Shown one piece after another: positions 186-51,266 of a stretch of 64,000 nucleotides of DNA. The notes beneath the pieces were generated by a model. It worked only from the letters and a program-made list of their open reading frames with translations. It was not told the origin of the DNA and searched no databases. The stretch's first letter is position 1, and every line of letters begins with the position of its first letter. A program made the translations under genes and the position numbers. This DNA comes from Deltaproteobacteria bacterium. GTDB taxonomy: Bacteria; Desulfobacterota_D; UBA1144; Nemesobacterales; JAJCZQ01. The stretch spans positions 4,033 through 68,032 of the forward strand of contig JAJCZQ010000017.1 in NCBI GenBank assembly GCA_029262335.1. The letters run 5' to 3'.

Positions 186-216
186 AGCCCGGCTGGAAAC
201 CCGGGCTTTTTTATTT
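186..216. terminator. Bidirectional rho-independent terminator
   Basis: AGCCCGG-ctggaaa-CCGGGCT followed by a T-run, with an A-run on the other side. Lies between convergent genes. Confidence 0.7.
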
Positions 217-222
217 TAGATA

Positions 223-579
223 TTATTTCCCGGGAAGTTTCTTTTTCCTGTCATTCTCGTCCAGGTTTACCAGGGTAATATTTGTCTCAAATATAAGTTT
301 TTTTTCATCTTCCCGAAGGTTGCTGTATACAACAACATGATACTGGACCGATGTGGTTCCAACATTTACTTTTTCAAGTTCAAATTCAAGTATCAGGCCT
401 TCTTTTACATTTGCTTTAAAAGAAACTTCATCCATTCCAACAGTAACGAGTTTGCATTTGGGATAATCAAGGCTTGCTGCAATCCAGGCGTATTCGTCTG
501 CCCATTTGAGGAGATTTCCTCCAAATATGTGGCCAAACTGGTTTAAATGTTCGGGCATTACAAGTTTGTAACTTTTCAC
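223..579 (-). CDS. Acyl-CoA thioesterase, hotdog fold (YciA/4HBT-like)
   Basis: N-terminal MPEHLNQFGHIFGGNLLKWADE motif typical of hotdog thioesterases. Length 118 aa. Confidence 0.75.
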   Translation of the reverse strand: MKSYKLVMPEHLNQFGHIFGGNLLKWADEYAWIAASLDYPKCKLVTVGMDEVSFKANVKEGLILEFELEKVNVGTTSVQYHVVVYSNLREDEKKLIFETNITLVNLDENDRKKKLPGK

Positions 580-1007
580 TGGTCCTCCGGCGGTGTTATC
601 TTATACCCTTCTTCCTGCCACTGTTTTATTCCGCCAAACTGGTAGATATGCTGGAATCCAAGTTCAGCCATAATGTCTGAAGAAGCAACTGCTCTTCTTC
701 CAGAGCGGCAATAAACGGCATAAGTCTTATTTTTATCCAGCTTACTGATATTGTCTTTAAAATCATCAGCCTCGTAGTCGATATTTACTGCATTTTGAAT
801 ATGGCCGGTATTAAATTCACGAGGGGTCCGTACATCGAGTATTACAAAATCAGGGTTGTTTTTATTCTTATCGATAAGTTCAGAACCTTCTTTTATATTA
901 AGGTTCTTTACAGTTGTTATGTCAGGCGGGACATCTTTGCAGCCAAGTAAAACAGTTAAGGTGAATAAGGATATAACTAATAATCTTGTTTTCTTCATAA
1001 TAAGCAT
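576..1007 (-). CDS. Rhodanese-domain lipoprotein (sulfurtransferase)
   Basis: Signal peptide with lipobox LLGC. CRSGRR active-site loop (Cx2GxR) characteristic of rhodanese. Confidence 0.8.
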   Translation of the reverse strand: MLIMKKTRLLVISLFTLTVLLGCKDVPPDITTVKNLNIKEGSELIDKNKNNPDFVILDVRTPREFNTGHIQNAVNIDYEADDFKDNISKLDKNKTYAVYCRSGRRAVASSDIMAELGFQHIYQFGGIKQWQEEGYKITPPEDQ

Positions 1008-1124
1008 AATATAGTCATTTTAAAAAAATTTAAAAACCACCGAAGGGTTTTTCATCCTGTGTCGTATAAATATATAAAAGCTAAGGCCAAACGCTTAAAA
1101 TAAATAATTTTCGGAGGCAATACT

Positions 1125-1559
1125 ATGAATAAGAATTTAATACTCGCAACAGCACTATTTGCAACAATCGGATTTTCAATGTCGGTAATAGGATATCCGC
1201 TCCAAAAGCTCGAATCGTTTTCCAAATTACCGCAGGACAAACAAACACTTGTTGTTGAAACTATGGACACAGTCCGTACTGAAAACAAGGAGTTGAGACA
1301 GCAGGCTAAAGAGATAAAGAAGGCTATGAAAGGTGTGTTGACAGCCCCTGAGTTTGATGCAAATGCGTACCAGGCTTATGCTGACCAGTACCAGGCCTTA
1401 AAGGTTCAGATGATGGTAGCCAAGACCGGTGCAATAAAGGACTTGGCTTCACAGATGAATCAGCAGGAAAGGGAAGTACTGTTGGAAATTATGCCAAAAG
1501 GTAAAAAAGGACATGGTAAATACCATGGAGAAAAAAGAAGTGAAAGAACTATACAGTAA
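1125..1559 (+). CDS. Periplasmic Spy/CpxP/ZraP-like (LTxxQ family) protein
   Basis: Signal peptide, helical and Q/K-rich. LTAPEFDANAYQ and KDLASQMNQQEREVLLEI resemble LTxxQ-family periplasmic chaperones. Paralogous to 2621..3106. Confidence 0.55.
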   Translation: MNKNLILATALFATIGFSMSVIGYPLQKLESFSKLPQDKQTLVVETMDTVRTENKELRQQAKEIKKAMKGVLTAPEFDANAYQAYADQYQALKVQMMVAKTGAIKDLASQMNQQEREVLLEIMPKGKKGHGKYHGEKRSERTIQ

Positions 1560-1650
1560 CAGCAATATCAGGCAGGCGGATTCAATATCCGTCTGTCTTT
1601 TTAATATTTTTACCCCTTCAATTATTTCCCAGGCAGTTAATATTTCATCA

Positions 1651-2202
1651 ATGCCGAGTGAACTTACTGATCCACAGCTTCTAAAATTAATTCAGGACGG
1701 AGACAAATCCGCATTTACAGAGCTTGTAAACCGTCACGCAAACAGGTTTTACAGGATATCGTTCAGGTTTCTTAATAACAGGGACAATTCGGAAGATATA
1801 GTACAGGATGCATTTTTAAAACTATGGAACAATACAGGTCTCTGGAAGTCCGATTTTGATGCAAAGTTTACCACCTGGTTTTCAAGGATCATCATAAATC
1901 TTTGCCTTGATTTAAAAAAGAAAAACAAAAGCAGTCTTGAGATCGATGATATGCAAATTTCGGGAGGCGGCGAAACACCTGATCAGGCAGTGTCAACAAG
2001 GCAAAGTAATGAAATATTGAACAGATACCTTGAGGAGCTTCCCGACAGGCAGCAGACTGCTATAAATCTTTGTTTTTACGAGGGCTTCAGTAACAGGGAA
2101 GCAGCAGAGATTATGGAGATTAATATTAAAGCATTAGAGTCACTGCTTATGAGGGCAAAGGCCAGTTTAAGGGAAAAACTTGTGAGCGAGGAGGGCGTTT
2201 AG
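1651..2202 (+). CDS. RNA polymerase ECF-type sigma-70 factor
   Basis: The GDKSAFTELVNRHANRFYRISFRFLNNRDNSEDIVQDAFLKLW block matches sigma-70 region 2, and there is a C-terminal region-4 HTH. An internal ATG at 1651 was chosen over the overlapping 1513 extension. Confidence 0.85.
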   Translation: MPSELTDPQLLKLIQDGDKSAFTELVNRHANRFYRISFRFLNNRDNSEDIVQDAFLKLWNNTGLWKSDFDAKFTTWFSRIIINLCLDLKKKNKSSLEIDDMQISGGGETPDQAVSTRQSNEILNRYLEELPDRQQTAINLCFYEGFSNREAAEIMEINIKALESLLMRAKASLREKLVSEEGV

Positions 2203-2628
2203 ATGGACAGGGAACAGTTTATTGAAAATTTACAACTATACGGGGCTGATATTGAAAAATGGCCTGAGGCAATAAGGCAGCAGGCATTAACAGCTTACCG
2301 GAATGTCCCTGAGATTAAGGGCCTGGTTGAAAGTGAAAAAGGTTTTGAATCGATGCTATTGGAAAGGGCCGTAGATGAACCAAGCTCAGATTTTGAAAGA
2401 AGAATAACTCTTTCGGCTAAGCCAAAGATAGAAAAAGAAGAAAAAGCTTCAGTATTCAGCAGTATTTTTGATCTGATAAGTATCCCAAAACCTGCCTTAA
2501 CAATGGCATTCTTACTGCTTTTTGGTTTTTCTCTTGGTTTTTTCTACGATACATACGCTGATACTGGTGAAGATAACATAGATCTTAGTGAATATATAAC
2601 TTTTGATGAGGGGGAGTATTATGAGTAA
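2203..2628 (+). CDS. Putative anti-sigma factor (single-pass membrane protein)
   Basis: Start immediately follows the sigma factor stop. One TM helix (LTMAFLLLFGFSLGFFY). The call is by position only. Confidence 0.45.
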   Translation: MDREQFIENLQLYGADIEKWPEAIRQQALTAYRNVPEIKGLVESEKGFESMLLERAVDEPSSDFERRITLSAKPKIEKEEKASVFSSIFDLISIPKPALTMAFLLLFGFSLGFFYDTYADTGEDNIDLSEYITFDEGEYYE

Positions 2629-3106
2629 AAAAATAAAGACTGTTCTTACCGTTTCGATAATCCTGAATGTATTGCTGCTGGGTGTTTTAATCGGAATGTC
2701 GGCTGATGATTATAAAGACCATAGAAACAAACGGGCAGAATTTCGCAGTGCAGTTGATAAACTTCCTGCTGAAAAATCCAAATTGGTCAAAAAAACCATG
2801 AGGGGCCTTCATAAAGAGACCAGGAAAATCAGAAATGAAGTAAAAAAAACCAGGAAAAATATTAATAAAATAATCAGTGCTCCCGAATTTGATGAATCAG
2901 CATATGATAAAGAGATTGAAAACCTTCAAAGACTACAGTCTGAAATAATGCTCAAATTCGGAAAGGTCACAAAAGAACTAGCAGTCCAGCTGGAACAGGA
3001 CGAAAGGAAAGTAATTGCCGAATTGCTGAAGAAAAGGACCTTTAAACACCAGAGGCATGATGGACCAAAACCCCCAAAGGGGCTTGACCAGCCGCCGTCA
3101 TTTTAA
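2621..3106 (+). CDS. Periplasmic Spy/CpxP-like (LTxxQ family) protein, paralog
   Basis: ISAPEFDESAYDKEIENLQ...LEQDERKVIAELL parallels the 1125..1559 product. Signal peptide present. GAGGGGGA RBS lies before the ATG at 2621. Confidence 0.55.
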   Translation: MSKKIKTVLTVSIILNVLLLGVLIGMSADDYKDHRNKRAEFRSAVDKLPAEKSKLVKKTMRGLHKETRKIRNEVKKTRKNINKIISAPEFDESAYDKEIENLQRLQSEIMLKFGKVTKELAVQLEQDERKVIAELLKKRTFKHQRHDGPKPPKGLDQPPSF

Positions 3107-3161
3107 TAATTACCATACAGGCCCGGAGGGTACAGGGCCCATATAGCAATTACCTTCATAC

Positions 3162-3398
3162 CTATTTCAGATCATTAATAGCTGCACCAAAATTTATATG
3201 ATAGGTGTTATCCCCTATTACAAGCGCCGGTACTGACTGAACACCACTTGATTCGGCTTCGCCGATCCTTCCGCTTTGTTCACCAAGATGGACCATTTCC
3301 ACTTCATACTTTTCCTGGTCAAGGGAGTTGGCCAGCCCCTGTTCTGCGTCAACACATACCGGGCATCCGGCATGATAAAAAATAGCCTTGGTTTTCAT
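3162..3398 (-). CDS. Glutaredoxin/thioredoxin-fold small protein (CPVC motif)
   Basis: 78 aa with a CPVC dithiol motif near the N-terminus. Confidence 0.55.
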   Translation of the reverse strand: MKTKAIFYHAGCPVCVDAEQGLANSLDQEKYEVEMVHLGEQSGRIGEAESSGVQSVPALVIGDNTYHINFGAAINDLK

Positions 3399-3471
3399 AA
3401 AACAAGACCTCCTTATTTATTATAGTATCGACTCAATACTAACAATAAAAAAATAATTTGTCAAGAATGTT

Positions 3472-4053
3472 TTGATCCGATACTATTTTGCTATGAGCCT
3501 GACAAATATTCTCAATCTTGTGGACAGTATAGGTAATTTACTTAGGTCTGAAGAGAAAAAATTCCTTCAGCCGCTGGGCCTTCAGCCTATTCACCTTCAT
3601 GTGCTTATGTATCTGTCCATGTGTAACAAATATAGTAATAATCCCGCAGCTTTAACTAAATATCTGGGTAACACCAAGGGTACTACTTCACAGAGTATTA
3701 ATGTACTTGAATCAAAGGGATACCTTGTTAAACAAAAGAGTAAGAAGGATAAAAGAATCGTTAAGCTTTATCTGACAGAACAGGCAACAGAGATCATAAA
3801 AAAACTTTCTTTTGAGGATTCTGAAGACTTTTTTAATGACAGGAGTATGGAAATAACAGAGAATGTATTAACAAATATCCTTAAATCACTACAGCTTTCA
3901 AACCAGAGTATGACCTTCGGTATATGTAAAACATGCGACTTTTTTATAGACGAGGGGGACGGGTTCAGATGCGGGTTGACTGAAGAAGTGCTGTTTGATT
4001 ATGAGATAGATCTTGTATGCCAGGAGCACGAGTCCGAGCTCCAGGATATCTAA
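3472..4053 (+). CDS. MarR-family-like transcriptional regulator with C-terminal Cys-cluster domain
   Basis: Winged-helix region (HLHVLMYL...SQSINVLESKGYLVKQKSKKDKRIVKLYLTE). C-terminal CKTCDFF...RCGL...VCQEHE. Confidence 0.6.
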   Translation: MIRYYFAMSLTNILNLVDSIGNLLRSEEKKFLQPLGLQPIHLHVLMYLSMCNKYSNNPAALTKYLGNTKGTTSQSINVLESKGYLVKQKSKKDKRIVKLYLTEQATEIIKKLSFEDSEDFFNDRSMEITENVLTNILKSLQLSNQSMTFGICKTCDFFIDEGDGFRCGLTEEVLFDYEIDLVCQEHESELQDI

Positions 4054-4054
4054 C

Positions 4055-4414
4055 CTATTCGCTAACCCAGCTTTTTGCTTCATCTATGTCTTCAAAGGAA
4101 AAACATTTGATTTCTATACTGCCAAACAGTTTATCAGAAAACTCACCGAGTCTTTTAACCCAGGTCTTATCGGTAACGACTGCTTTTTTATCAAATTTTC
4201 CAAAATTCTTGACTCCAAATTTGAGGTCTTTGAAAAAAGCTTCCAGCGATATACCTTCGAAGTTTTCCATTTCAACATAAACACTGAGTTTTTCGGAATT
4301 TTTAAACTTTTCTTTGGCAAGTTTAGCTGTTTTCTCTATATCCTCTGTGCTGATCCTGCCTTTGATAGCCACACCAAGGATTTTTTCATTATCAAAATCA
4401 ATTATTTCAATCAT
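4055..4414 (-). CDS. STAS/SpoIIAA-like domain protein
   Basis: 119 aa. Pattern resembles STAS-type (DUF3478-like) small proteins. Weak recognition. Confidence 0.45.
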   Translation of the reverse strand: MIEIIDFDNEKILGVAIKGRISTEDIEKTAKLAKEKFKNSEKLSVYVEMENFEGISLEAFFKDLKFGVKNFGKFDKKAVVTDKTWVKRLGEFSDKLFGSIEIKCFSFEDIDEAKSWVSE

Positions 4415-4632
4415 AGTACTTATAGTATAAACACTTAATAACCATTAAGTATTAAATTATTTTTATCCGTTGCATACTTTAAAACCTTCTATATTCTAAA
4501 CAATAAAATCGATTTGCTGATCTTTAACAATAGAATAATTACTACATGTTGCCAGTCAGGGGTTTATTAACATCCTTGTCTAAATTTCCATAAGGGCGGT
4601 TGGAGGAAATCTTATACAGGGAGGTGATAAAT

Positions 4633-4926
4633 ATGAAGAATTTTATAGTTCTTTCAGTACTGGTCTATACTCTTAGTCTTTCATTGCCGCAGTCAGGCCC
4701 GGGCCATATGTCATTATATGAGTCCACCGAAATCGAAAACCGTATAAATTCGGATTTCGAGATTCAGGCTGTGCAAATGGAACTGATGAGTTTTTATACG
4801 GACCCGGATTCATACAAGATGGTTCCATCTTACAGTCCGGTAATCGGTAATTACAGTCAGAAAAAGCCGGATAATAGTAATCTTGAAGTATTCGGCGTTA
4901 AAATACCTACAGAAAATCTTAAATGA
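4633..4926 (+). CDS. Small secreted hypothetical protein
   Basis: GGAGGTGA RBS, ATG at 4633, N-terminal signal peptide. Followed by a strong terminator. Confidence 0.4.
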   Translation: MKNFIVLSVLVYTLSLSLPQSGPGHMSLYESTEIENRINSDFEIQAVQMELMSFYTDPDSYKMVPSYSPVIGNYSQKKPDNSNLEVFGVKIPTENLK

Positions 4927-4950
4927 TATCCGGATGGCGGATTAATACTG

Positions 4951-4986
4951 CCCGGGCAAAGCATATTATGCTTTGTCCGGGTTTTA
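4951..4986 (+). terminator. Rho-independent terminator
   Basis: CCCGGGCAAAGCAT-att-ATGCTTTGTCCGGG followed by TTTT. Confidence 0.8.
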
Positions 4987-5069
4987 TAAATTTCTTTTAT
5001 TTAGGTTATCTCAGCCTATACTAAATATTATTAAATTTTATTAAGGGAAAGATTTTTAAGAAAACTTAA

Positions 5070-7751
5070 ATGAGAATATTCACAGGACTTATAATCGTTG
5101 TTGTTATTATTGGCGCACTAATGGCTTTTGCGTTATTTAACCTAAGCAGCCTTGTTAATAAGAATAAGGGAGTTGTTATTTCAAAGATTGAATCCAGTAT
5201 CGACAGGAAAATAGAGGTCGGCGAGATAGGTGTAAGCATATTTGGCGGGCTTGGACTTTCGCTGGATAATTTTAAAATAGAAGACGACAGGGCATTTTCT
5301 CAGGGTAACTTTGTAGAAGCATCGCAGCTGATTGTAAATGTTAAGTTTCTTCCGCTCCTTAAAAAAGATTTCCAGGTCAAAAAATTTACACTCGATGACC
5401 CCGTGATAAACCTGATAAGAAGTAAAAACGGGACATATAATTTTTCAAGCCTTATAAAAGAATCTGAAAAAGAAACAGATGAAGACGGAAAGGAGTCTTC
5501 ATATTTTATTGGTATTGCTGATATTACAAACGGAACGCTAAACTACGAAGACAGGAAAGACAACACTAAAATCCAGGTTACAAATATTGATTTCAGTTCA
5601 GAGGGGATTGAAAAAAATAAACCCGTTAATTTTGAACTCGCAATGGCGGTTCTGTCCAAAGGCCAGAACATTAAAATAGAGGGTACTGTTGGGCCGGAAG
5701 ACCAGGCAGGAGGTTTTGAAAACGCACCGGTTGACCTTTCGGTGGATATTGATTCGGTAAATTTTGCCGATCTTAATAAAAACTTTCCACAGATTAAAGG
5801 ATTACTGCCCGAGGGCCTTGGGCTAAACGGGCCTCTTAAAACAAGTTTTAAAGCAAAGGGTACAGGATCAAAATTAGAGATAAATGATTTAAACCTTAAA
5901 GGTGCCGTATTTGGTTCAGGGGAGCAGAACCTGCACATAAGCGGCAATGCTGGCCCGGTAGGGTCTGCAGCAAAGGGAAATGTAAAACTTGATCTCAATT
6001 TTTCCCTTGATCCAGTGGAGTTTCAAAATCTTAAGAACTTTAAGCAGATTGGAGATTCAATTCCGAAAGAACTCAGCGGTGAAGGGCCGATTAAGTTAAA
6101 TGGAAAAATCAGCGGTACACCGGAGAATCTTTCACTCTCTTCTGTGGTATTTAACGCTACAGATACCAAACTTACCTACGGTGATTTATTTGCAAAAGAT
6201 AAAGGTACACCTTTTACTGTCAGTACTGATACCGAAATTGGTAAATCCGATATTAAATTCACTAAATTAAACATACTGCTGAATAAACTCGAAACTGATA
6301 TTAAGGGGACTATGGGCCTTGGGGATAAAAACAGTTTTGACCTTTCAATTATTTCAAATAACGCTGACCTTGGATCGCTGGCTGATAACCTTTCTTCGCT
6401 TAAAGACTATAAAGTAAACGGCAGCCTGGATGTTGATATTAATTTAAAAGGCACGAGCGATGACCCCAAAATTTTTGGTACTGCAAAGCTCATTAATGTA
6501 GGAGCAAGTCCGGAAGGACTGGTAAAACCGGTTACCGGGATAAACGGTACTGTTAATTTTACGGGAAACGGTGCTACGCTGGATAAAACTGAGATTGATA
6601 TAGGCGGCTCCAGAATGTATGTTGAAGCAAATCTTACGGATTTTTCTCCGCTTACAGGTTCCTATGACCTTACAGCAGACGAAATTCATCTTTCCGATTT
6701 TTCAAAAAATGCAACAAAGGGTGAAGTCTTTAAAGACGTAAATATCGCCGGGAACATAGACGCCGACGGGACCCAGACTGCTGATATCAGCTCCAGTAAC
6801 GGGAAAATCTCAAAGGTGAACTACAAAAAACTAAACGGCAAAGCCACATTAAAAGACGGTGTTGTTGATTTTAATGATTTTAAATTTGATTTTCTAAATG
6901 CCAAGTTCAAATCAAACGGCACTTTTGACCTGAGCGGTGATGTACCCAAATTCCAGATGGACACCGACCTTACCGGGGTAAGTGTAACTGAGCTGGCAAA
7001 GACATTTCTTAATCCTACCGAGTATCCGCTTGTGGGAGTTTCAACCATAAAACTTGCCTTTAAAGGCATTGGTAAGGGTTGGGAAGAAATAAGTAAAACA
7101 CTCGAGGGTAAGGGTAGTGTAGAGATCAATGAAGGCGGGATCAAAAACGTAAATATTGCAGACAGTGTAGTTGGTGGGATTACAGGGGTCCCCGGCCTTA
7201 CTAACTTTATCTCCGCCGATACCAAGGAAAAATACCCATCGGTGTTTAAAAGCAAAGACACAAATTTTTATAATTTTAAAACGCCTATAAGTATAAAAGA
7301 CGGCAAAGTAAATATGGACAACATTAATATAAGTGCAAAGGACTGCAGGATAAACGGCAAGGGTTACGTGGGCCTCGATGGGTCTATGGATATGAATGGT
7401 GTTGTCGCACTTTCGGGTGATATGTCCGATAACCTTGTTGAACAAAAAGACCTTGTTAAGTACCTAAAAAATAACAAAGGAAATATAGAGATTCCATTTA
7501 AAATGGACGAGTCCATGACACCCCAGCCTGATATGGACTATCTGCAAAACTCTTTCCAGAGGGCCGCGAAAGACAAGTCAAAAGAAGAGCTTAAGAAAAA
7601 GATTATTGAAAGCCTAAGCAGTAACGATGAAGACGAAGAAGAAGCCGAGGGCCAGAACCTTGCGCCGGGTGAAAAACCAAAACCCAAAGAGAAAAAAGAT
7701 GGCCTCGACAGTCTTATAGATGAAGGGTTGGATAAGGTGTTTGGGTTTTAG
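5070..7751 (+). CDS. AsmA-family outer-membrane biogenesis protein
   Basis: 893 aa. N-terminal TM anchor, long repetitive beta-rich body with GT..N.T... repeats, C-terminal AsmA-like region and acidic K/E tail. Confidence 0.75.
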   Translation: MRIFTGLIIVVVIIGALMAFALFNLSSLVNKNKGVVISKIESSIDRKIEVGEIGVSIFGGLGLSLDNFKIEDDRAFSQGNFVEASQLIVNVKFLPLLKKDFQVKKFTLDDPVINLIRSKNGTYNFSSLIKESEKETDEDGKESSYFIGIADITNGTLNYEDRKDNTKIQVTNIDFSSEGIEKNKPVNFELAMAVLSKGQNIKIEGTVGPEDQAGGFENAPVDLSVDIDSVNFADLNKNFPQIKGLLPEGLGLNGPLKTSFKAKGTGSKLEINDLNLKGAVFGSGEQNLHISGNAGPVGSAAKGNVKLDLNFSLDPVEFQNLKNFKQIGDSIPKELSGEGPIKLNGKISGTPENLSLSSVVFNATDTKLTYGDLFAKDKGTPFTVSTDTEIGKSDIKFTKLNILLNKLETDIKGTMGLGDKNSFDLSIISNNADLGSLADNLSSLKDYKVNGSLDVDINLKGTSDDPKIFGTAKLINVGASPEGLVKPVTGINGTVNFTGNGATLDKTEIDIGGSRMYVEANLTDFSPLTGSYDLTADEIHLSDFSKNATKGEVFKDVNIAGNIDADGTQTADISSSNGKISKVNYKKLNGKATLKDGVVDFNDFKFDFLNAKFKSNGTFDLSGDVPKFQMDTDLTGVSVTELAKTFLNPTEYPLVGVSTIKLAFKGIGKGWEEISKTLEGKGSVEINEGGIKNVNIADSVVGGITGVPGLTNFISADTKEKYPSVFKSKDTNFYNFKTPISIKDGKVNMDNINISAKDCRINGKGYVGLDGSMDMNGVVALSGDMSDNLVEQKDLVKYLKNNKGNIEIPFKMDESMTPQPDMDYLQNSFQRAAKDKSKEELKKKIIESLSSNDEDEEEAEGQNLAPGEKPKPKEKKDGLDSLIDEGLDKVFGF

Positions 7752-7772
7752 GAATGTCTGGAAAGATATAAG

Positions 7773-7809
7773 AAAAGGGAGCAAAGAATAATTTCAATGC
7801 TCCCTTTTG
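7773..7809. terminator. Conserved family-B hairpin terminator, copy 1, bidirectional
   Basis: AAAAGGGAGCA-aagaataatttcaa-TGCTCCCTTTT. Shared by the convergent AsmA and paralog-1 genes. Confidence 0.8.
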
Positions 7810-7845
7810 ATTAAATTGTTTTTAATTTACTAAACTAGGCCTGGT

Positions 7846-8847
7846 TTATGATGGATCGATGTCGAAAAAGTTGTCAGTAAAGAATGAATCAAATGAACCT
7901 CTTCCATTGCCGTTGTTAAGTCCTACATAGCCAAAAGCAGCATCTGTTTCTTCACCTATGTTCTCAATTGTTAATATAACTTCACCCTCAGGAATGATGT
8001 TGCCCGGGCAAAGAAGTTCCCCACCTTTACTGTTTGGAATAACGTTGTTGATACCATATTCATACCTTGCTACTGAAGCAGAGGAACGTTCAAATATAAA
8101 TCCACCCTGACTAGCTTGAGTCAGTATTTCCTCTATAAGTGGATTATTCTCATCTACACATGAAAAAACAACGTCACGGCATGAAAAAAGAACCTCGTTG
8201 TTATTGATAATATCAACATCTACAGCAACCCATGTACCAAGTACATTATCAAGGGTTGCTTCAAATATACCTTCACCAACAGAGTCTGTACTAAGAGCGA
8301 TTCCAAATACATCTGAAAGTACTACACCGCTTTCAGAGTTGTAATTAAAGTATGCAGTTGGAAATTGTTCATCAAAAGGGACTCCAACCGAATTGGTAAT
8401 TGCATTGGTCCTGTACTCATAACCAAGGTTGTCATTAATCCTGATATTTCCAATTAATGGCTGAAATATTTCCATGCCTTCATTTACAGGCACAGAAGCG
8501 ACAATTATACCATAGGCATCATCCGGAAGGACTACCCCTGAAGGATTAGTGTCATTTGTTAATATGTTTCTCAGGTTATAAATATGTGTGTCGTTTGGCG
8601 TATAAGCATCAAAAAAGTTGTTCTCGTTACAGAGATTAGCAACATTATAGATCTGTACATGTACTGTCTGACTTGATGAATCTACATTTGTAATCTGGAA
8701 GAAAGACTCCCTGTCCCTCAGGTCAAACGGAACAATTAAAAATATTCCCGCATTGTCTGTTTCCGGAACTATTCCAAAACCGCCGGAAAGAGTATTAGAG
8801 GCAGGAAAAATTAAGGTGATTAATAAGATTAATGTTAATGTTCTCAA
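7846..8847 (-). CDS. Secreted protein, novel paralogous family, member 1
   Basis: Signal peptide. Conserved blocks DLRDRESF, NLCNENNFFD, NDTHIYNLR, GYEYRTN, FSCRDVVFSCVDENNPLIEE, YEYGINNVIPNSKGGELLCPGN, GLNNGNGRGS. TTG start with GGAGG SD. Confidence 0.85.
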   Translation of the reverse strand: MRTLTLILLITLIFPASNTLSGGFGIVPETDNAGIFLIVPFDLRDRESFFQITNVDSSSQTVHVQIYNVANLCNENNFFDAYTPNDTHIYNLRNILTNDTNPSGVVLPDDAYGIIVASVPVNEGMEIFQPLIGNIRINDNLGYEYRTNAITNSVGVPFDEQFPTAYFNYNSESGVVLSDVFGIALSTDSVGEGIFEATLDNVLGTWVAVDVDIINNNEVLFSCRDVVFSCVDENNPLIEEILTQASQGGFIFERSSASVARYEYGINNVIPNSKGGELLCPGNIIPEGEVILTIENIGEETDAAFGYVGLNNGNGRGSFDSFFTDNFFDIDPS

Positions 8848-8973
8848 AATAAAATCCTCCTAAATATTAATTTTGCTTATTTTACAACATTTAAAGTATA
8901 AATACCAGCTTATAGTATATAAAAAAGTAAAGTTTATATATTTGATTTATAGAGATTAAAAGAATTGAGAAAT

Positions 8974-9012
8974 AAAAAAAGGGAGCAAAGAATAATTTCA
9001 ATGCTCCCCTTG
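8974..9012 (-). terminator. Family-B hairpin terminator, copy 2
   Basis: AAAAAAAGGGAGCA-aagaataatttcaa-TGCTCCCCTT, downstream of paralog 2. Confidence 0.75.
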
Positions 9013-9040
9013 ATTAGTGATCTAAGTTTATTTTTTGCTA

Positions 9041-10039
9041 TTACATTTCTTGAAGTATAAAACCATTTTGATAAAAGAATGAATCCATAGACCCTCTTCC
9101 ATTACCATTGTTTAAGCCTACATATCCAAAAAAAGCATCGGTATCATCGCCCTGATTTTCAATTGTTAGAATTACCTCTCCTTCAGGGATTGTATTACCT
9201 GGACAAAGGAGTTCTCCTCCCTTACTGTTTGGAATAACATTGTTTATACCATATTCATAACTTGCAACTGATGCAGAGGAACGTGTGGGAATACCTCCAT
9301 CACTGGCAAGTACAAGTATTTCCTCTATGAGCGGATTGTTTTCATCAACGCAGGAAAACACAACGTCACGGCATGAAAAAAGTACCTCGTTGTTATCGAC
9401 AATATCAACATCTACTGCAACGAATGTACCAAGCACATTATCAAGTGTAGCTTCTGCCTCACTGCCCTCTTCTTCACTTGCTGAAAGGGCGAATCCAAAA
9501 ACATCGGAAAGTACAACTCCACCCTCTGAATTATAGTTAAATGTTAATATTCCAGGTATCTCACTTTCAGGTAAACGGGCAGGGCTGCTTATAATATTGG
9601 ACCTGTATTCATAACCTGAATTATCTGTAATTCTGAAATTGCCGATTAGAGGAGTAGGGGGAATTTCATTAAATTCAACCCCAGCTGATACAAAAACTAT
9701 GCCGTAAGCATCATCGGGCAGCACAACTCCGGAAGGGTTTCCATCATTAGTAAGAATGTCTCTTAAATTATAAACATGTGTGTCGTTTGGTGTATAAACA
9801 TCAAAAAAGTTGTTTTCATTACACAGGTTTGCAACATTATAGATTTGAACATGTATTGTCTGGGAAGCAGAATCCACATTAGTTATCTGTAAAAAGGATT
9901 CTCTGTCTCTCAGGTCAAAAGGCGCAACTGATAAAAAAGACCCGGTGTCTGTTTCGCTTACAACACCTATTCCTCCTGCAATTGAATTGCCTGTAGGGAC
10001 AAACAGTGTTAATAATAAAAGTAAAATAATGGTTCTCAT
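9041..10039 (-). CDS. Secreted protein, novel paralogous family, member 2
   Basis: Same conserved blocks as member 1. Internal ATG at 10039 with GGAGG SD preferred over the 10102 extension. Confidence 0.85.
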   Translation of the reverse strand: MRTIILLLLLTLFVPTGNSIAGGIGVVSETDTGSFLSVAPFDLRDRESFLQITNVDSASQTIHVQIYNVANLCNENNFFDVYTPNDTHVYNLRDILTNDGNPSGVVLPDDAYGIVFVSAGVEFNEIPPTPLIGNFRITDNSGYEYRSNIISSPARLPESEIPGILTFNYNSEGGVVLSDVFGFALSASEEEGSEAEATLDNVLGTFVAVDVDIVDNNEVLFSCRDVVFSCVDENNPLIEEILVLASDGGIPTRSSASVASYEYGINNVIPNSKGGELLCPGNTIPEGEVILTIENQGDDTDAFFGYVGLNNGNGRGSMDSFFYQNGFILQEM

Positions 10040-10130
10040 AAATATCCTCCTAAAAATCAATCCGGTAAAAATAATCTTATTTTTTATATTGTTCAATAGC
10101 ACACATTATATATAAGGTGAATATTGTACA

Positions 10131-10168
10131 AAAAAAGGGAGCAAAGAATAAATTCCATACTCCCTTTC
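10131..10168 (-). terminator. Family-B hairpin terminator, copy 3
   Basis: AAAAAAAGGGAGCA-aagaataaattcca-TACTCCCTTT, one stem mismatch. Confidence 0.65.
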
Positions 10169-10184
10169 TTACTTATGATTTTTT

Positions 10185-11252
10185 TTAGAATTGCCCTATT
10201 TCTTCAGAAAAAATTAAAGCAGGGAAAAACATTGTATCCATTGAACCGCGTCCGTTACCGTTATTTAAACCAATATATCCGTAAAAACCTACAGTATTTT
10301 CTCCACGATTTTCAGGAGTAAGAACTACAACTCCTTCAGAAATTATATTACCGGGGCAAAGGAGTTCTCCTCCTTTACTGTTTGGTATAGCCTCATTAAT
10401 ACCGTATTCAAATCTTGCAACTGAAGCTGATGAACGTGCAAGGGTCTCACTACCTGCGAGTACAAGTATCTCTTCAATCAGGGGGTTGTTTTCATCAACG
10501 CAGGAAAATACAACGTCGCGGCATGAAAACAGGACTTCATTGTTATTAATTATATCCACATCGACTGCAACAAATGATTCAAGGACGTTGTCGAGAGTTG
10601 CTTCAAAAGTAAAAGTTTCATCACCTATGAAGTCATCATCATCATCGCCTATTGCAAACCTATCAGAACTTAATGCTATTCCGAAAACATCTGAAAGTAC
10701 AATTCCGGCCTCAGAGTTAAAATTAAAAGTATTAAAGAACTGTTCAATATTTATAGGTATTATTTGTCCGAAAAAACTCGGTGTGGAAGCAATATTGGTC
10801 CGGTATTCATAACCGGAACTATCTATCATCCTTATATTTCCAATTAGTGGTGTAGTTATGAATTCTGGGTCAATAACTAAAAATGGTATAGGTGCACTAA
10901 TAAACACTATTCCATATGCATCTTCAGGGAGTACTACACCAGAAGGGCTGCCGTCGTTGGTAAGAATGTCCCTTAGGTTGTAAACATGTGTGTCATTTGG
11001 TGTATAAAGGTCGAAAAAATTGTTTTCGTTACAAAGGTTTCCTACGTTATAGATCTGTATATGAAGGTTCTGGCTGGTTGAGTCTATATTAGTCAGCTGA
11101 ATATAAGACTCCCTGTCCCGCAGGTCAAAAGGAGCTGCCAATAGAAAGGACGAGTTGTCAGTCTCTGCCAGGCCAATTGGACCAAGCCCTGCAAAAGAGA
11201 TACCGGCAGGTGTGAAAAGTGTAATTAAAAGCAGTAAAGTTAAAATCCTCAT
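10185..11252 (-). CDS. Secreted protein, novel paralogous family, member 3
   Basis: Same conserved blocks. Poly-Asp variable loop (GDDDDDFIGDE). ATG with GGAGGA SD. Confidence 0.85.
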   Translation of the reverse strand: MRILTLLLLITLFTPAGISFAGLGPIGLAETDNSSFLLAAPFDLRDRESYIQLTNIDSTSQNLHIQIYNVGNLCNENNFFDLYTPNDTHVYNLRDILTNDGSPSGVVLPEDAYGIVFISAPIPFLVIDPEFITTPLIGNIRMIDSSGYEYRTNIASTPSFFGQIIPINIEQFFNTFNFNSEAGIVLSDVFGIALSSDRFAIGDDDDDFIGDETFTFEATLDNVLESFVAVDVDIINNNEVLFSCRDVVFSCVDENNPLIEEILVLAGSETLARSSASVARFEYGINEAIPNSKGGELLCPGNIISEGVVVLTPENRGENTVGFYGYIGLNNGNGRGSMDTMFFPALIFSEEIGQF

Positions 11253-11330
11253 AAATTCCTCCTAATACTTAATTAATATAATTTTACTTCAAATACCTGT
11301 TTTCTGTAATTCACTTGGATGTAGTTACAA

Positions 11331-11362
11331 AAAAAGCAGCAAAGAATAAATTAAGTGCTTCC
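11331..11362. repeat. Degenerate copy 4 of the family-B hairpin (stem eroded)
   Basis: AAAAAAGCAGCAAAGAATAAATTAAGTGCTTCC aligns to copy 3 but retains only a 4-bp stem. No gene is upstream on the minus strand. Confidence 0.5.
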
Positions 11363-11680
11363 TAGTTTAATAATTTTAATATCAGGAAAAGTGCTAAACA
11401 ATCTTTTCTCCCACCCAGTATCCAGTCCAAAATTGAACCAATTAGGTAATTATAAAACCATTTTGACTATATATTCAAGTATGAAATTAACACGCTAAAT
11501 GAATACTGCAATAAGATCTTATATAACATGCTGATATTATTATGTATTATGAAATATATTTATTGGAACATGTAAAAAGTATAAAAGTAGTTTTAAAACT
11601 TTATAAAGTCCCATTCGTATTAATAATTCATCAAAAATAAAATCCTGAATACAGTTTTCAGGTCTATAAGGGGTTTTCAA

Positions 11681-12361: not shown

Positions 12362-12610
12362 GCAAAGAACTTATAGAAAAAACAAACTGATATAATTTGC
12401 AATACTTCATTTTCTTTATCTTGATATAAAGAAAACGAAGCAAAAGAAAGATCAAGGCTGGAAATTTCATACACTAAAAAAACAAATTAAAATCTAAAGC
12501 GTAAAATCCCGCCACAACCCCTTTACGCTTCTTAACGATTTAAATTCATTTTTTCTTAACGTTATTCATTGCAGGCCGTTTATAAAAATTCAAAAAAATT
12601 AATTCCTACA
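12362..12610. repeat. Family-A interspersed structured repeat, copy A1 (5'-truncated)
   Basis: Near-identical to 45.69-45.87 kb and 53.07-53.26 kb. Contains hairpins TTTCTTTATcttgATAAAGAAA and AGCGTAAA-N16-TTTACGCT, and ends ...CATTGCAGGCCGTT. Confidence 0.8.
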
Positions 12611-12625
12611 GATTATTGGAAGGTA

Positions 12626-13210
12626 TTAATTTGAACACCCATTTCCCCCTAATTCTTCAAGATGCAAACTAATCTCAGATTTAATTTCTTCATCATCTTC
12701 CGCTCTTGAACAGGCAATTTGCAAAAGTTCTATAGCTTTTTCACGGCTGCCCGATGCTGAGTACAGCACTGCAAGTGTGTCGAGGGCAAAAGCGGGTGCA
12801 ATCTCGGCAGGGGGCAGGGTTTCTATAAGAACCTCAATCCCTTTATCGAATTCCTTCCCGGTTTCGAGATAGACATTGCCCAGGTTGTTTGCTGCCAGCA
12901 CGTTTTTATTGTCTTTTTTAAGTGCCTTAAGATAGTACTTCCGTGCATCTTTATATTTGCCCTGTTTGAAGTAAACATTCCCGATGTTAATAAGCGGCGT
13001 GACCAGCTCTTCATCTTTTTTGGAAGCGAGTTTGTATTCTTTAATGGCAAGTTTGTATTTTTCTTCCTTCTCATATGCAACGCCCAGATTGTTGTGCTCT
13101 TCTGCAGTTAACGGGTCTTCATAGTTTAATACCGCTGATACATGGGCGCAGCTAATATTCAGGGATATGGACAGAATTAAAAAGAATATCGGTATGGATT
13201 TAATCTTCAT
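12626..13210 (-). CDS. TPR-repeat lipoprotein
   Basis: Lipobox (LNISC). Several TPR units (NNLGVAYEKEEKYKLAIKEYKLA, INIGNVYFKQGKYKDARKYY, NNLGNVY). Confidence 0.7.
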   Translation of the reverse strand: MKIKSIPIFFLILSISLNISCAHVSAVLNYEDPLTAEEHNNLGVAYEKEEKYKLAIKEYKLASKKDEELVTPLINIGNVYFKQGKYKDARKYYLKALKKDNKNVLAANNLGNVYLETGKEFDKGIEVLIETLPPAEIAPAFALDTLAVLYSASGSREKAIELLQIACSRAEDDEEIKSEISLHLEELGGNGCSN

Positions 13211-13754
13211 TATCTATTACCAGCATAAGCCTGTTCATCTTTTCCCACTGTTTATCAAGCTTATCGTAACTTATTGTGTTTCCGTTATTTTTACCATCAT
13301 GGATAAGGAATTGACTGCTGTCCGGGTTGTAACCGTAAACAACATAGTAGTGCTGAACGGGTACACCTAACTTTCCCCTGTCGACAAGAAGGATGACGGG
13401 TTTATTATCGTCTACCAGCCTTGTTAATGTATTCAAATTCCCATTGTCTGTTTTGGATGAAAAACCATTTTCTTCAGCATAATACTTCATGTCTGAAATT
13501 AAAGATCCGTTAAGCTCAGGTGTATATACATTTGCGGCAATTTCATCCTGGTTTGTTTCTTTGCCGTAATATCTGAATACCGAGGTTAATGCCGCAGGGC
13601 CGCATAGCTGGTATTTCTGTTTCACAAATGGGACACCTGTGATTACAGTTCCCGTATTTCCCAGGCTGCTGCTCTCAGGTGCTGTTTTAGTGCAGCTTAA
13701 AAGAACAGCTGAGACAGATAGAAATAACGCAAGTGTAAGGGCAGCGTGTGACAT
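13200..13754 (-). CDS. Secreted papain-like cysteine peptidase, C39-like domain
   Basis: Signal peptide. QKYQLCGPAALTSVFRYYG (catalytic Cys context) and HYYVVYGYNP (His context) resemble the Peptidase_C39-like family. Confidence 0.55.
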   Translation of the reverse strand: MSHAALTLALFLSVSAVLLSCTKTAPESSSLGNTGTVITGVPFVKQKYQLCGPAALTSVFRYYGKETNQDEIAANVYTPELNGSLISDMKYYAEENGFSSKTDNGNLNTLTRLVDDNKPVILLVDRGKLGVPVQHYYVVYGYNPDSSQFLIHDGKNNGNTISYDKLDKQWEKMNRLMLVIDNED

Positions 13755-13783
13755 TACTTGTTGAATGAAGCTTTCAGGCTTTG

Positions 13784-14179
13784 CTACACCCTTTTGTACA
13801 GATAAAGGATTACAAGAACGAGAGCAACTACTACAAGTACCCCGATAACGACCCCAAGGCCATCACCACCCGAAGGGATTCTGTCTGAAAGGGATGTAAT
13901 CTGGTGGACTTCGGCATCACTCATTTTTTCCATCTTTTCCAGTACCTGTTCTTCTGAGAGTCCGTGGCCCATAAGTTTTTCTGCAACAAGCTTGTTTTCA
14001 AGGGCCCTCTTTACTTTAATCTCATCAATGTCACGGGCTGAGACAGTTTTGCCGTCCTCAGTGATATAACGGGAGTCCTGGAATGATGCATTGGCACTGA
14101 TTGATACTAACGAAACAGGTAAAAAGGTAGAGAATATAATTCCTATGATTAAAAATCTGATACCGCGGTTAATTAACAT
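13784..14179 (-). CDS. Small bitopic membrane protein
   Basis: N-terminal signal/TM segment and a C-terminal TM (LGVVIGVLVVVALVLVILYLY) around a charged helical core. Clustered with the C39-like and TPR genes. Confidence 0.4.
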   Translation of the reverse strand: MLINRGIRFLIIGIIFSTFLPVSLVSISANASFQDSRYITEDGKTVSARDIDEIKVKRALENKLVAEKLMGHGLSEEQVLEKMEKMSDAEVHQITSLSDRIPSGGDGLGVVIGVLVVVALVLVILYLYKRV

Positions 14180-30105: not shown

Positions 30106-30603
30106 ATGTTTAATGTATTTATAGGTCTGGGCTCTAACCTTGGCAACAGGACCGAGAACTGCCTTGCAGCTATCGAGCACCTGTCGGACTTTACTATTAT
30201 CAAGTCTGTCTCGTCCTTTTACGAGACAGAACCTGTGGGTAATGAAGACCAGCCGAGGTTTATTAATGCCGTTGCAAAGGTTAATACACTTCTTTCTCCC
30301 CTGAATCTTCTAAACTCTCTTAAGACTGTTGAAAGCCAGCTTGGGCGCGAAAGGAATGAGAAATGGGGCCCAAGGACCATAGACCTCGATATTCTGATAT
30401 ATGAAGATTTTCAGCTGGACTCCCAGGAACTTACAATCCCCCACAAGGAACTTGTAACAAGAAGGTTTATGCTTGAACCGTTATGCGAAATAGAGCCGTG
30501 GCTTGAGCACCCAACTCACAATAAGACCATGAGTACAATCCTCAAAGAGCTTCAGGATGACCGCGAAGTTGTGATTGTCGGTAATTTTTACAAAAACAAT
30601 TAA
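30106..30603 (+). CDS. folK: 2-amino-4-hydroxy-6-hydroxymethyldihydropteridine pyrophosphokinase (HPPK)
   Basis: IGLGSNLGN, ETEPVG, PRTIDLDIL motifs. Confidence 0.9.
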   Translation: MFNVFIGLGSNLGNRTENCLAAIEHLSDFTIIKSVSSFYETEPVGNEDQPRFINAVAKVNTLLSPLNLLNSLKTVESQLGRERNEKWGPRTIDLDILIYEDFQLDSQELTIPHKELVTRRFMLEPLCEIEPWLEHPTHNKTMSTILKELQDDREVVIVGNFYKNN

Positions 30604-33733: not shown

Positions 33734-33735
33734 AA

Positions 33736-33778
33736 TAAAAAAAGGGAGCAATGATTATAGTTCATTGCTCCTTTTTGA
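33736..33778 (+). terminator. Family-B hairpin terminator, copy 5
   Basis: AAAAAAAGGGAGCAATG-attatagtt-CATTGCTCCTTTTT. Confidence 0.75.
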
Positions 33779-33795
33779 GTTTTATCATGTTTTTC

Positions 33796-34092
33796 TTAAC
33801 TCTTATCGCAGTCTGAAAGTTTTTGTGCCACGAGTGAATTTGAAGCGTCTGTAGCAACAAATGGTTTGTAGAAGCATTCTATTTCAGAGTTGTTATTGCT
33901 GAGTTTCTGTACAGCTAATGAATTAGAAGCATCTGTGGCAACAAATGCGTTTGATTCTATACTGGAATTTTCATCCAGCATCTGTACTGCAAGAGAGTTT
34001 GAAGCATCGGTAGCCACGAAAGGTGCTGCATATGAAAATACCGGCATTCCTAGAACAGCAATTAAAGCTAAAATCTTAATATATTTAAACAT
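33796..34092 (-). CDS. Small secreted tandem-repeat protein (3x FVATDASNSLAVQKLS)
   Basis: GGAGG SD, signal peptide MFKYIKILALIAVLGMPVFSYA, then three imperfect roughly 25-aa repeats. Confidence 0.6.
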   Translation of the reverse strand: MFKYIKILALIAVLGMPVFSYAAPFVATDASNSLAVQMLDENSSIESNAFVATDASNSLAVQKLSNNNSEIECFYKPFVATDASNSLVAQKLSDCDKS

Positions 34093-34354
34093 TTTAAAGC
34101 CTCCTGAGTTTTTAGTTACAGTATTATAGTTGCATGTGCAACTATAAGGATTCATAATACTTCAAATTATTTTCAATACCGGAAAATATTCATTAAAAGG
34201 TCTTCAACTCAACTGCTAACTATTTCATATTACTTATTAGAATAAAAACCTGTTATTTCAGAACTTAATTCCCACTAAAATATAAAAATCAGTAGAAACC
34301 GTTAATCCAATAGGCAGACTATGATTTATTGATATCTGTTTTGGAGGACTCAGT

Positions 34355-35458
34355 ATGGCCAGCATTATTAACGATTTTAAAATTGTTGTTTTTATCAGTT
34401 TTATATTAATCGCAATTACATTTTTTAACTGCGGGGGCGATAGTATAGATTCATCCACAAACAGCAGTTCACCGGAACTCAGCAGAATTGACGGACGTGT
34501 TACTGAGGTGCTGGCATTAAAAATAGATGAAAAACAGTCACATTTTGCTGAAATTAAAAATACATTGAGTTTTACCGTGACAGCTACCGCCCAGGGGTCC
34601 TTAGTGGATGGAATTTTAGTTATGGCTATTGGGAATGATTCAAACGGTGAAAAGCTTTTGGACCAGGATACAACAGCCTTTGATGGCAGTTTCAGCCTGT
34701 TTGTCCCGGCCGGGGAAGTTGCTCTGCAGTTTGAAGTTGATAACGAAGTATATGAAAAAGTATTGCAGGTCCCTGAGGAAACCACTGTTGAAATACTGGT
34801 CAGCATAGATAAAGAAGATAAAGTAAACCCGGTTGAAATATCCGGTCCGGATGAAGTTGGCGAAGAGGAAAATACGGAAGATACTATTGATGAAACGGAA
34901 GATAATAGTGAAGACATGAATAATGAAAATGATGTTCCTGAGCCGGAAGATACTAATGACATGCAGGATGAAGATGAGCAGACAGGTAATGATGACGATG
35001 ACAATCAGGGTGATTTTGATCCACCATCTTCGGGAGAAGGGAATATAACTTCGGCAGAATTAGTCTCTTCGGTAAACTCAAGACGGGCCCAGGGGGCAAA
35101 TTGCGGATCCGAAGGGTCATTCGGGCCACAGGGGCCGCTTGGAATAAGTAACTCTCTTGGTGAAGCGGCACTCAGGCATTCAGTAGATATGTCAGAAAAC
35201 AATTTTTTTGAACACCGGGGTTCTGACGGATCAAGCCCTATAGACAGAATGAGGGATGCGGGGTTTGCCGGAAACGGCTGGGGTGAGAATATCTCACGTG
35301 CAAGCTATGAAAGATCAGCCGAGGAAGTAGTAGCAGGCTGGATGACAAGTGACGGGCACTGTTCAAACATTATGACCCCGGGTTTTAATGTCCTGGGTTC
35401 TGCAAAAGCAGCTAACAGCAACTGGGAAAACTGGACACTTAATCTCGGTACTGAGTAA
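34355..35458 (+). CDS. CAP (SCP/PR-1-like, YkwD-type) domain lipoprotein with acidic linker
   Basis: Lipobox FFNCGG. Long D/E-rich linker. C-terminal CAP region (ELVSSVNSRRAQGANCGSEG...EHRGSDGSSPIDRMRDAGF...GENI...AGWMTSDGHCSNIM). Confidence 0.75.
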   Translation: MASIINDFKIVVFISFILIAITFFNCGGDSIDSSTNSSSPELSRIDGRVTEVLALKIDEKQSHFAEIKNTLSFTVTATAQGSLVDGILVMAIGNDSNGEKLLDQDTTAFDGSFSLFVPAGEVALQFEVDNEVYEKVLQVPEETTVEILVSIDKEDKVNPVEISGPDEVGEEENTEDTIDETEDNSEDMNNENDVPEPEDTNDMQDEDEQTGNDDDDNQGDFDPPSSGEGNITSAELVSSVNSRRAQGANCGSEGSFGPQGPLGISNSLGEAALRHSVDMSENNFFEHRGSDGSSPIDRMRDAGFAGNGWGENISRASYERSAEEVVAGWMTSDGHCSNIMTPGFNVLGSAKAANSNWENWTLNLGTE

Positions 35459-35566
35459 ATATAAAATCAGAAGCATTAACTCTGATCTAAACTGAATAGT
35501 TATTCTTAAATTAGTAAAAATAATATATACTTCTAAGGTATTAAAATAGTTTATGGAGGATCATAA

Positions 35567-45596: not shown

Positions 45597-45912
45597 TTTA
45601 ATTTTTAGTATATTTTTGTTTAGCCTTGAATTTTGGTTCTTTGTTTCAAGACAAAGAACATAGAAAGATAAATAAAGTTACTTAATAGCTATTCTTCATT
45701 TTCTTTATCTTGATATAAAGAAAACGAAGCAAAAGAAAGATCAAGGCTGGCGATTCATTAACTAAAAAAACAAAATAAAATCTAAAGCGTAAAATCCTGC
45801 CACAACCCCTTTACGCTTCTTACCGATTTTATTTCATTTTTTCTTCACGTTATTCATCGCAGGCCGTTTTATAAAATATTGTGTCATCTCGAACAAATGT
45901 GAGAGATCTATT
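45597..45912. repeat. Family-A interspersed structured repeat, copy A3 (most complete)
   Basis: Contains all modules: GTTCTTTGTttcaagACAAAGAAC hairpin, TTTCTTTATcttgATATAAAGAAA hairpin, AGCGTAAA-N16-TTTACGCT hairpin, ...CATCGCAGGCCGTTTT. Tail GTCATCTCGAACAAATGTGAGAGATCT. Confidence 0.8.
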
Positions 45913-51265: not shown

Positions 51266-51266
51266 A

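Follow-up and report, generated by a model that had tools for sequence, protein, structure and literature searches.

Five paralogous genes, here called M1 to M5, are encoded in a stretch of 64,000 nucleotides from a deltaproteobacterium (the window; contig JAJCZQ010000017.1 of assembly GCA_029262335.1, positions 4,033 to 68,032 of the forward strand), and a short segment of M3 had been flagged as a cassette-like loop in which otherwise similar copies differ sharply. We consider it moderately probable that this loop belongs to a set of five segments which are under weak constraint and tolerate indels, within an old, greatly expanded family of Sec-secreted proteins. According to this reading, the copies would have separated long ago, with saturation of their synonymous sites, and the contrast between conserved blocks and loops would have arisen from time and unequal constraint. 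Strong purifying selection, at a dN/dS ratio (omega) of about 0.03-0.14, would hold the scaffold and the motif-rich core, and the loops would drift at about 0.3-0.6 of the neutral rate while gaining and losing residues, in M3 partly by slippage of a (GAT)n repeat. The arrays would grow and shrink through recombination between the terminator hairpins repeated after the tandem genes, so that close strains would differ in the copies they carry.

The paralogs and their variable segments

All five paralogs named in the original prediction are present and full length, and the loop sequences quoted there are exact. M1 to M3 are arranged head to tail on the minus strand, and M4 and M5 are dispersed on the plus strand; the flagged stretch, 10600-10690, falls inside M3. 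The genes and the features belonging to them are the following (ORF, open reading frame; HMM, hidden Markov model; aa, amino acids).

7846-8847, minus strand: M1 paralog, 333 aa; from ORF and translation, with TTG start and Sec-type signal peptide; family HMM score 493
9041-10039, minus strand: M2 paralog, 332 aa; from ORF and alignment, the JGI gene call also giving 332 aa
10185-11252, minus strand: M3 paralog, 355 aa, the gene containing the flagged loop; from ORF, alignment and AlphaFold2 model
35567-36556, plus strand: M4 paralog, 329 aa; about 50% identity to M1-M3; within an accessory block of secreted-protein genes
49638-50645, plus strand: M5 paralog, 335 aa; downstream of an animal-haem-peroxidase gene
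10842-10907, minus strand: L1 of M3, after DAYGI, residues 116-137; family length 11-24, mean entropy 3.0 bits
10725-10793, minus strand: L2 of M3, after GYEYRTN, residues 154-176; family length 16-26, mean entropy 3.3 bits
10563-10679, minus strand: L3 of M3, residues 192-230; family length 19-43
10602-10667, minus strand: exemplar loop SDRFAIGDDDDDFIGDETFTFE, M3 residues 196-217, the centre of variable segment L3
10632-10646, minus strand: (GAT)4GAC trinucleotide repeat coding for Asp203-207; (GAT)7GAC (eight Asp) in the L008 allele
10428-10466, minus strand: L4 of M3, after EEIL, residues 263-275; family length 0-23; absent from the original prediction
10272-10331, minus strand: L5 of M3, between EG.V.L and GLNNGNGRGS, residues 308-327; family length 17-38; likewise absent from the original prediction
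7764-7807, minus strand: terminator hairpin after M1 (GGGAGCA...TGCUCCC, then a U run); repeat family; fold -19.4 kcal/mol, z = -5.0
8968-9011, minus strand: terminator hairpin after M2; same repeat family; -18.9 kcal/mol, z = -5.9
10124-10167, minus strand: terminator hairpin after M3; same repeat family; -19.6 kcal/mol
11322-11365, minus strand: fourth, degenerate terminator repeat, upstream of M3; 66% identity; z = -0.07, folding lost

In full-length protein alignments, identity to M1 is 71% for M2, 66% for M3, 52% for M4 and 50% for M5, and 119 columns are invariant in the alignment of the five. The length of M1 agrees with the JGI gene call, and the true start of M2 is the ATG at 10039, which is preceded by an AGGAGG site, and not the GTG at 10102. 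Each of M1-M3 possesses an AGGAGG site, an N-terminal Sec-type signal peptide and its own 44-nt repeat of a hairpin with a U run. The window copies are five independent single genes and not an expression site with silent cassettes.

The variation of the loops was placed in the context of the whole family with an alignment of 128 sequences, obtained from a metagenome scan that yielded 73 loci and a search with a family HMM that yielded 151 ORFs in 84 loci, of which 128 are unique and full length. Throughout this alignment, differences in sequence and length are found in the same five internal segments, and the mature N-terminus and the C-terminal tail are likewise variable. The three variable positions named originally, namely after DAYGI, after GYEYRTN and between VLSDVFG.ALS and ATLDNVL, are real features of the family, with mean column entropies of 2.8-3.3 bits compared with an overall 1.7 and values of about 0 for the motif blocks. 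The variable segments sit between predicted strands and tolerate indels, L3 of M3 being at the long end of the family length range. They differ in composition and are not just hydrophilic, L1 being 44% aliphatic and L2 and L5 16% aromatic, and L3 and L4 are acidic (17-20% Asp and Glu).

Part of the length variation of L3 is connected with a microsatellite. The L008 allele of M3 (91% identical) carries (GAT)7GAC in place of (GAT)4GAC, and runs of at least four acidic residues, mostly encoded by GAT/GAC repeats, occur in L3 of 9 of the 128 members. The (GAT)n change is an in-frame slippage that alters the length of the loop and does not switch expression; a phase-variation contingency locus is accordingly rejected, as the change from four to seven units keeps the frame and merely lengthens the poly-Asp tract. 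The M3 ortholog of another species (71% identical) retains a poly-Asp tract at the same place, which indicates that the M3 loop is constrained and not random.

Divergence of the window copies

The tandem copies resemble each other in their proteins only. Nearly identical flanking DNA, as had been reported for them, is not found: the conserved blocks of M1-M3 are 62-93% identical in 15-codon windows, and no two copies share an identical run longer than 23 nt. The proportion of synonymous differences (pS) in the core is 0.68-0.78 among M1-M3 and 0.73-0.90 for pairs including M4 or M5, and sliding windows along the gene mostly give pS values of 0.5-0.9, M1-M2 showing a single local drop to 0.32-0.47. 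As judged from these saturated synonymous sites, the window copies are old; the core dN/dS between them is 0.04-0.09 where computable. The likeness of the scaffold is kept by purifying selection and not by recent duplication or gene conversion. Gene conversion among the copies is rejected because of the high pS along the whole gene, the absence of conversion tracts and the shortness of the longest identical run.

Selection on loops and core

Between the window paralogs, pS and the corresponding proportion of nonsynonymous differences (pN) in the loops are both about 0.5-0.7 and saturated, hence uninformative for dN/dS. The selection tests used closer pairs from other contigs, with a core pS below 0.55. 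For the pairs with unsaturated synonymous sites, core omega is 0.03-0.14, and loop omega, with a recent M3 pair set apart, is 0.10-1.1 and mostly 0.3-0.6, remaining below 1 in eight of the nine measurable pairs (0.10-0.59) and reaching about 1.1 in one. The pN of the loops is 2-16 times that of the core in every informative pair. The comparison of M1 with an 83%-identical ortholog (L087C) shows a pN of 0.024 in the core and of 0.265 in the loops at an equal pS of 0.47, corresponding to a loop omega of about 0.44. At an omega of about 0.4 and a dS of about 1.9, a loop dN of about 0.8 is expected, and the values observed among M1, M2 and M3 are 0.73-0.84; time and unequal constraint suffice for the pattern. 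The original proposal of diversifying selection on the loops is therefore retained only in part: loop dN/dS is above background, and the loops evolve faster than the core by the factor given above, but an omega above 1 is not demonstrated by these values.

The recent M3 pair consists of the window gene and its ortholog in a closely related strain (L006, ENA ERZ25072490), which differ in 11 codons, 9 of them nonsynonymously and 2 synonymously (pN 0.013, pS 0.010, omega 1.26). In eight neighbouring genes of the same strain pair, omega is 0.08-0.19 at a pS of 0.04-0.34. The loop omega of the M3 pair is about 5, from 8.5 nonsynonymous and 0.5 synonymous changes, with P of about 0.09 against neutrality. 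The pair thus hints at episodic adaptive change in M3, or at relaxation in the very recent past; the hint is real but small and does not amount to proof. M5 alleles show an omega of 0.10-0.14 and only 3 amino-acid changes, as under ordinary purifying selection, and comparison of the window with a 99.9%-identical JGI contig reveals a single change in the array, E130G in L1 of M3.

M3 as a whole is 99.0% identical between the window and L006 (10001-11068), with the pS of 0.010 mentioned above, and the flanking genes differ at a pS of 0.14 (AsmA) and 0.34 (orf141). The low pS of M3 relative to its flanks suggests a recent local recombination or a sweep confined to M3.

Size, distribution and predicted structure of the family

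The family appears to be undescribed, being without a relative in Pfam, NCBIfam, PADLOC or the PDB: scans of the five paralogs against Pfam (to E 1), NCBIfam and PADLOC gave no match, and neither did the family profile against PDB sequences at E values up to 1. A search with M3 in a collection of 5.8 billion proteins retrieved 923 clusters at 90% identity, among which no names or Pfam domains were found, the precomputed Pfam column being empty for all 120 listed homologs, and a profile search retrieved 383 proteins among representatives at 50% identity. Family members occur in marine and deep-sea-sediment metagenomes, and SDBT01, one source record set, is the Loki's Castle deep-sea sediment metagenome. 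The GTDB species representatives contain a single match, on a contig of 3.3 kb from a metagenome-assembled genome (MAG) labelled Hyphomicrobiales, which is too short for a trustworthy taxonomy. No relatives were found in viral contigs, which indicates that the family is not phage-borne.

Single genomes may carry many copies. Tandem arrays contain up to six genes (L020), with five in L043, and 12 copies were counted in the 78 kb fetched from one 296-kb contig and 11 in 59 kb of another; one MAG, GCA_905148435.1, contains at least 29 copies on 18 contigs. The identity to the nearest paralog is mostly 60-80% for the family members in the collected loci, indicating that the expansion is old and not ongoing. 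The 149 ORFs flanking family genes represent 128 Pfam families, of which the commonest, pentapeptide repeats, was seen five times, and neither a recurrent neighbour or pathway link nor a linkage to glycoside hydrolases or polysaccharide-utilisation loci was found among them. Family members are rarely and sporadically fused to other regions, such as Calx-beta, DUF1554, an alpha/beta hydrolase region or long N-terminal extensions; fused members include a protein of 751 aa with an alpha/beta hydrolase-like C-terminus (L087, 6418-8673) and the proteins P0134-P0136, P0140 and P0149. Many database proteins align to profile positions 1-235 only, and this limited match suggests that the N-terminal domain is a separable module.

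A signal-peptide-like N-terminus, consisting of a K/R-containing n-region followed by a hydrophobic h-region, is present in 125 of the 128 members, and a lipobox-like motif in three. The proteins have a calculated isoelectric point of about 4 and four invariant cysteines (C74, C244, C251 and C299 in M3 numbering). About 50 positions are invariant and about 45 nearly so, with D, E, H, R, N and Y frequent among them; they include DLRDRE, H64, NDTH, GYEYRTN, SCRD, EYGIN and GLNNGNGRGS.

An AlphaFold2 model of M3 calculated from a 77-sequence alignment is confident and all-beta (mean predicted local distance difference test score, pLDDT, 81.8; predicted template modelling score, pTM, 0.81), and two beta-sandwich domains are predicted for the family proteins. 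Low-confidence stretches coincide with variable segments, with a pLDDT of 58 for residues 201-210 and of 54 for residues 161-170, and the exemplar loop is modelled as a beta-hairpin extension. Foldseek searches of the full-length model against the PDB and BFVD found no whole-chain relative (template modelling scores, TM, of 0.1-0.2) and only a partial match to TM1070 and to ASRT, the sensory rhodopsin transducer of Anabaena, and these two were also the only meaningful matches of the N-domain model (residues 30-252).

Organization and gene content of the locus

The window derives from the chromosome of a diderm bacterium, encoding SecA, SMC, SurA, AsmA, FolD and TrpE, and no rRNA, tRNA or Rfam matches were found in it. 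The hairpins after M1-M3 fold at -18.9 to -19.6 kcal/mol with z values of -4.2 to -5.9, and the terminators of M4 and M5 are unrelated to this repeat. The degenerate fourth copy upstream of M3 probably remains from a former boundary of the array. A hairpin at 33734-33778, after a thaumatin-domain gene, is 84% similar to the M1-M3 repeat over 44 nt, indicating that this terminator sequence is reused outside the array.

The gene content of the array differs between relatives. L006 contains only the M3 ortholog beside AsmA, and the region corresponding to window positions ~7785-10124 (M1 and M2) is missing, with flanks that are 94-98% DNA-identical to the window. The junction in L006 (locus 11060-11140) lies inside the 44-nt terminator repeat, which resembles the M3 copy to one side and the M1 copy to the other. 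As the related species L011 possesses counterparts of both M3 and M1/M2, the absence of M1 and M2 from L006 is most simply explained by a deletion. In L087 and L088, other family members and other genes are found between the SucFer/CofD block and AsmA, and the differing gene sets of L006, L087 and L088 mark the locus as a hotspot of gene-content variation. The family belongs to the flexible genome.

M4 lies in an accessory block (30773-36556) between HPPK (30106-30603) and FolD (36622-37476), which also codes for a cysteine-rich protein of 986 aa with the thaumatin domain, a CAP-domain protein and, at 33796-34155 on the minus strand, a small ORF with three repeats of the type PFVATDASNSL(A/V)(V/A)QKL. 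In a related circular genome of 3.1 Mb (L084), a GDSL lipase replaces this block. The gene directly upstream of M5 (47629-49419) codes for an animal-type haem peroxidase (Pfam E=1e-159), a pairing also present in contig L009, and a Gp49/HigB-like gene and a second small gene follow directly downstream (50951-51581), which likely represent a toxin-antitoxin pair.

Three small genes adjoin the array at 12626-14179 on the minus strand, coding for DUF6627, papain-like C39 peptidase domain and TPR proteins. They are conserved in L006 and may constitute a small module for secretion or processing. An intergenic repeat of ~170 nt is dispersed in three copies over the plus strand of the window (~12410-12590, ~45690-45870 and ~53100-53260) and is also present in the L006 contig. 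It contains an internal inverted repeat, AAAGCGTAAA...TTTACGCTT, has no match in Rfam and could be an element resembling miniature inverted-repeat transposable elements or repetitive extragenic palindromes, or a small RNA.

Discussion

A conserved frame with variable loops is a familiar pattern in multigene families, and ordinary divergence explains it here. As to the role of the proteins, our best guess is that they may act outside the cytoplasm as binding modules of the type of lectins or carbohydrate-binding modules (CBMs); the fold, together with a common site or an interface with partners, would then come from the conserved core, and the binding of each paralog would be adjusted by the variable segments.

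Several points weigh against this account of weakly constrained loops in a family of binding proteins. The ratio of nonsynonymous to synonymous changes in M3 differs from that of the neighbouring genes (Fisher p=2e-4 for the L006 pair), and 8 of the 9 amino-acid changes are located in one of the five variable segments or in the signal peptide (binomial P=0.009); for the recent M3 allele pair, episodic positive selection is at least as good a fit as relaxed constraint. A whole-loop mean omega below 1 is, moreover, compatible with positive selection at a few sites. The aliphatic content of L1 and the aromatic content of L2 and L5 may mean that parts of the variable segments are buried and not exposed. 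The binding role is suggested by a weak, partial fold resemblance and general features, and the many invariant D, E, H, R, N and Y residues would equally suit the active site of an enzyme.

One alternative, proposed originally, is that the loops are under diversifying selection, as parts of a repertoire of surface or secreted recognition proteins whose arms race would be with phages, predators, hosts or competitors, or which would follow a large number of ligands. We regard this as possible but rather unlikely. It would account for the excess of nonsynonymous changes in the M3 pair and their concentration in the signal peptide and variable segments, for the low pS of M3 relative to its flanks, as left by a recent sweep or transfer, and for the differing gene content of close relatives and the great expansion of the family. 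However, the single high loop omega is calculated from about nine changes and is not significantly above neutrality (P of about 0.09), the loops of all but one of the other measurable pairs stay below 1, the M5 alleles have hardly changed in amino acid sequence, and the poly-Asp tract persists between 71%-identical orthologs.

The proteins might also be secreted enzymes, for example polysaccharide-active ones with a beta-sandwich or jelly-roll fold, in which the active site would be built from the invariant polar residues and the substrate groove lined by the variable segments, and the paralogs would differ in substrate and not in binding specificity. This assignment seems unlikely to us. The invariant and near-invariant polar positions and the low core omega would fit it, and sulfatases and other hydrolases are found among the neighbours, along with the occasional fusions to alpha/beta hydrolase regions. 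Against it stand the lack of any Pfam, NCBIfam or PDB sequence match and of any meaningful enzyme fold in the Foldseek results; the diversity of Pfam families among the flanking ORFs means, furthermore, that there is no metabolic operon context.

A more far-reaching proposal, which we find doubtful to about the same degree, is that the genes constitute a large and strain-variable repertoire of secreted recognition proteins in uncultured bacteria of the sea and of deep-sea sediments, each genome having 29 genes or more, in which five loops on a fixed beta-sandwich frame would be remodelled repeatedly through episodic positive selection, slippage of microsatellites and the gain or loss of array members. 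If true, bacteria would here possess an equivalent of germline-encoded receptor repertoires, based on a fold family without a described relative, and positive selection in the loops, if it were real, would add a new example of a bacterial recognition repertoire.

Programmed diversification, either by a diversity-generating retroelement (DGR) or by gene conversion from silent cassettes, is very improbable. It would explain only a superficial pattern of conserved flanks and variable inserts together with the tandem arrangement, but the differences between the loops include indels, which are not generated by retroelements, and all copies are complete and separately terminated. It is refuted for the window, where no reverse transcriptase was found in the scanned ORFs, no loop copies elsewhere and no conversion tracts. 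The Pfam scans covered 30 larger ORFs of the window, with precomputed Pfam annotation for ~200-11250, and when the array was compared by blastn with the remainder of the window, only conserved-core matches to M4 and M5 and no loop repeats were retrieved. The term cassette-like is not supported for these loops, which belong to complete genes with their own ribosome-binding site, signal peptide and terminator and have neither nearly identical flanks nor silent cassettes, reverse transcriptase or template repeat.

The heavy investment of these bacteria in one secreted scaffold implies an important extracellular role, be it binding or substrate processing. The family lends itself to a new domain entry as well as to structural work and ligand screening.

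Comparison with known systems

The variable proteins of DGRs share with the present family the principle of a conserved scaffold displaying a hypervariable ligand-binding segment. They differ in that no reverse transcriptase or pair of template and variable repeats accompanies the genes described here, that indels occur, and that five internal sites vary instead of one C-terminal region. A template repeat of a DGR is recognized by differences at adenines only and without change in length, and the length of L3 ranges from 19 to 43 residues. Borrelia vls and Neisseria pilE/pilS are cases of antigenic variation by gene conversion with silent cassettes, and they are similar in containing tandem related sequences with variable regions between conserved ones. 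In contrast, all window copies are complete genes of the expressed type, and their conserved blocks, with a DNA identity of only 70-90%, and saturated synonymous sites indicate no recent conversion.

The closest structural parallel is offered by TM1070 (1nc7), which aligns with the modelled N-domain over ~139 columns at a Foldseek probability of 1.0, a target-normalised TM of 0.71 and 8% identity, and by ASRT (2ii7, 2ii8), with TM values of 0.5-0.7 for the N-domain. For the TM1070/ASRT (ASRAH) superfamily, which has extracellular versions among its members, De Souza, Iyer and Aravind proposed that the ligands are small molecules and probably sugars (PMC2739507). However, identities are 8-14%, the N-domain of the query is about twice as large (query-normalised TM 0.39), less than half of it is covered by the match and a second beta domain follows. 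The proteins described here are, moreover, secreted, disulfide-bonded and present in dozens of copies, and no ASRT match was obtained by sequence, either with Pfam for the five paralogs (E up to 1) or with the family profile against the PDB. The likeness of the modelled N-domain is therefore a weak resemblance and not a sign of membership.

With CBMs and beta-sandwich lectins, the query family shows no significant sequence or fold match to any defined family, but several CBMs and lectin-like domains are among its low-scoring Foldseek matches. Secreted CBMs and lectins that occur in multiple copies combine, as do the proteins described here, a small beta-sandwich and a conserved frame with variable inter-strand loops that are aromatic-rich in places.

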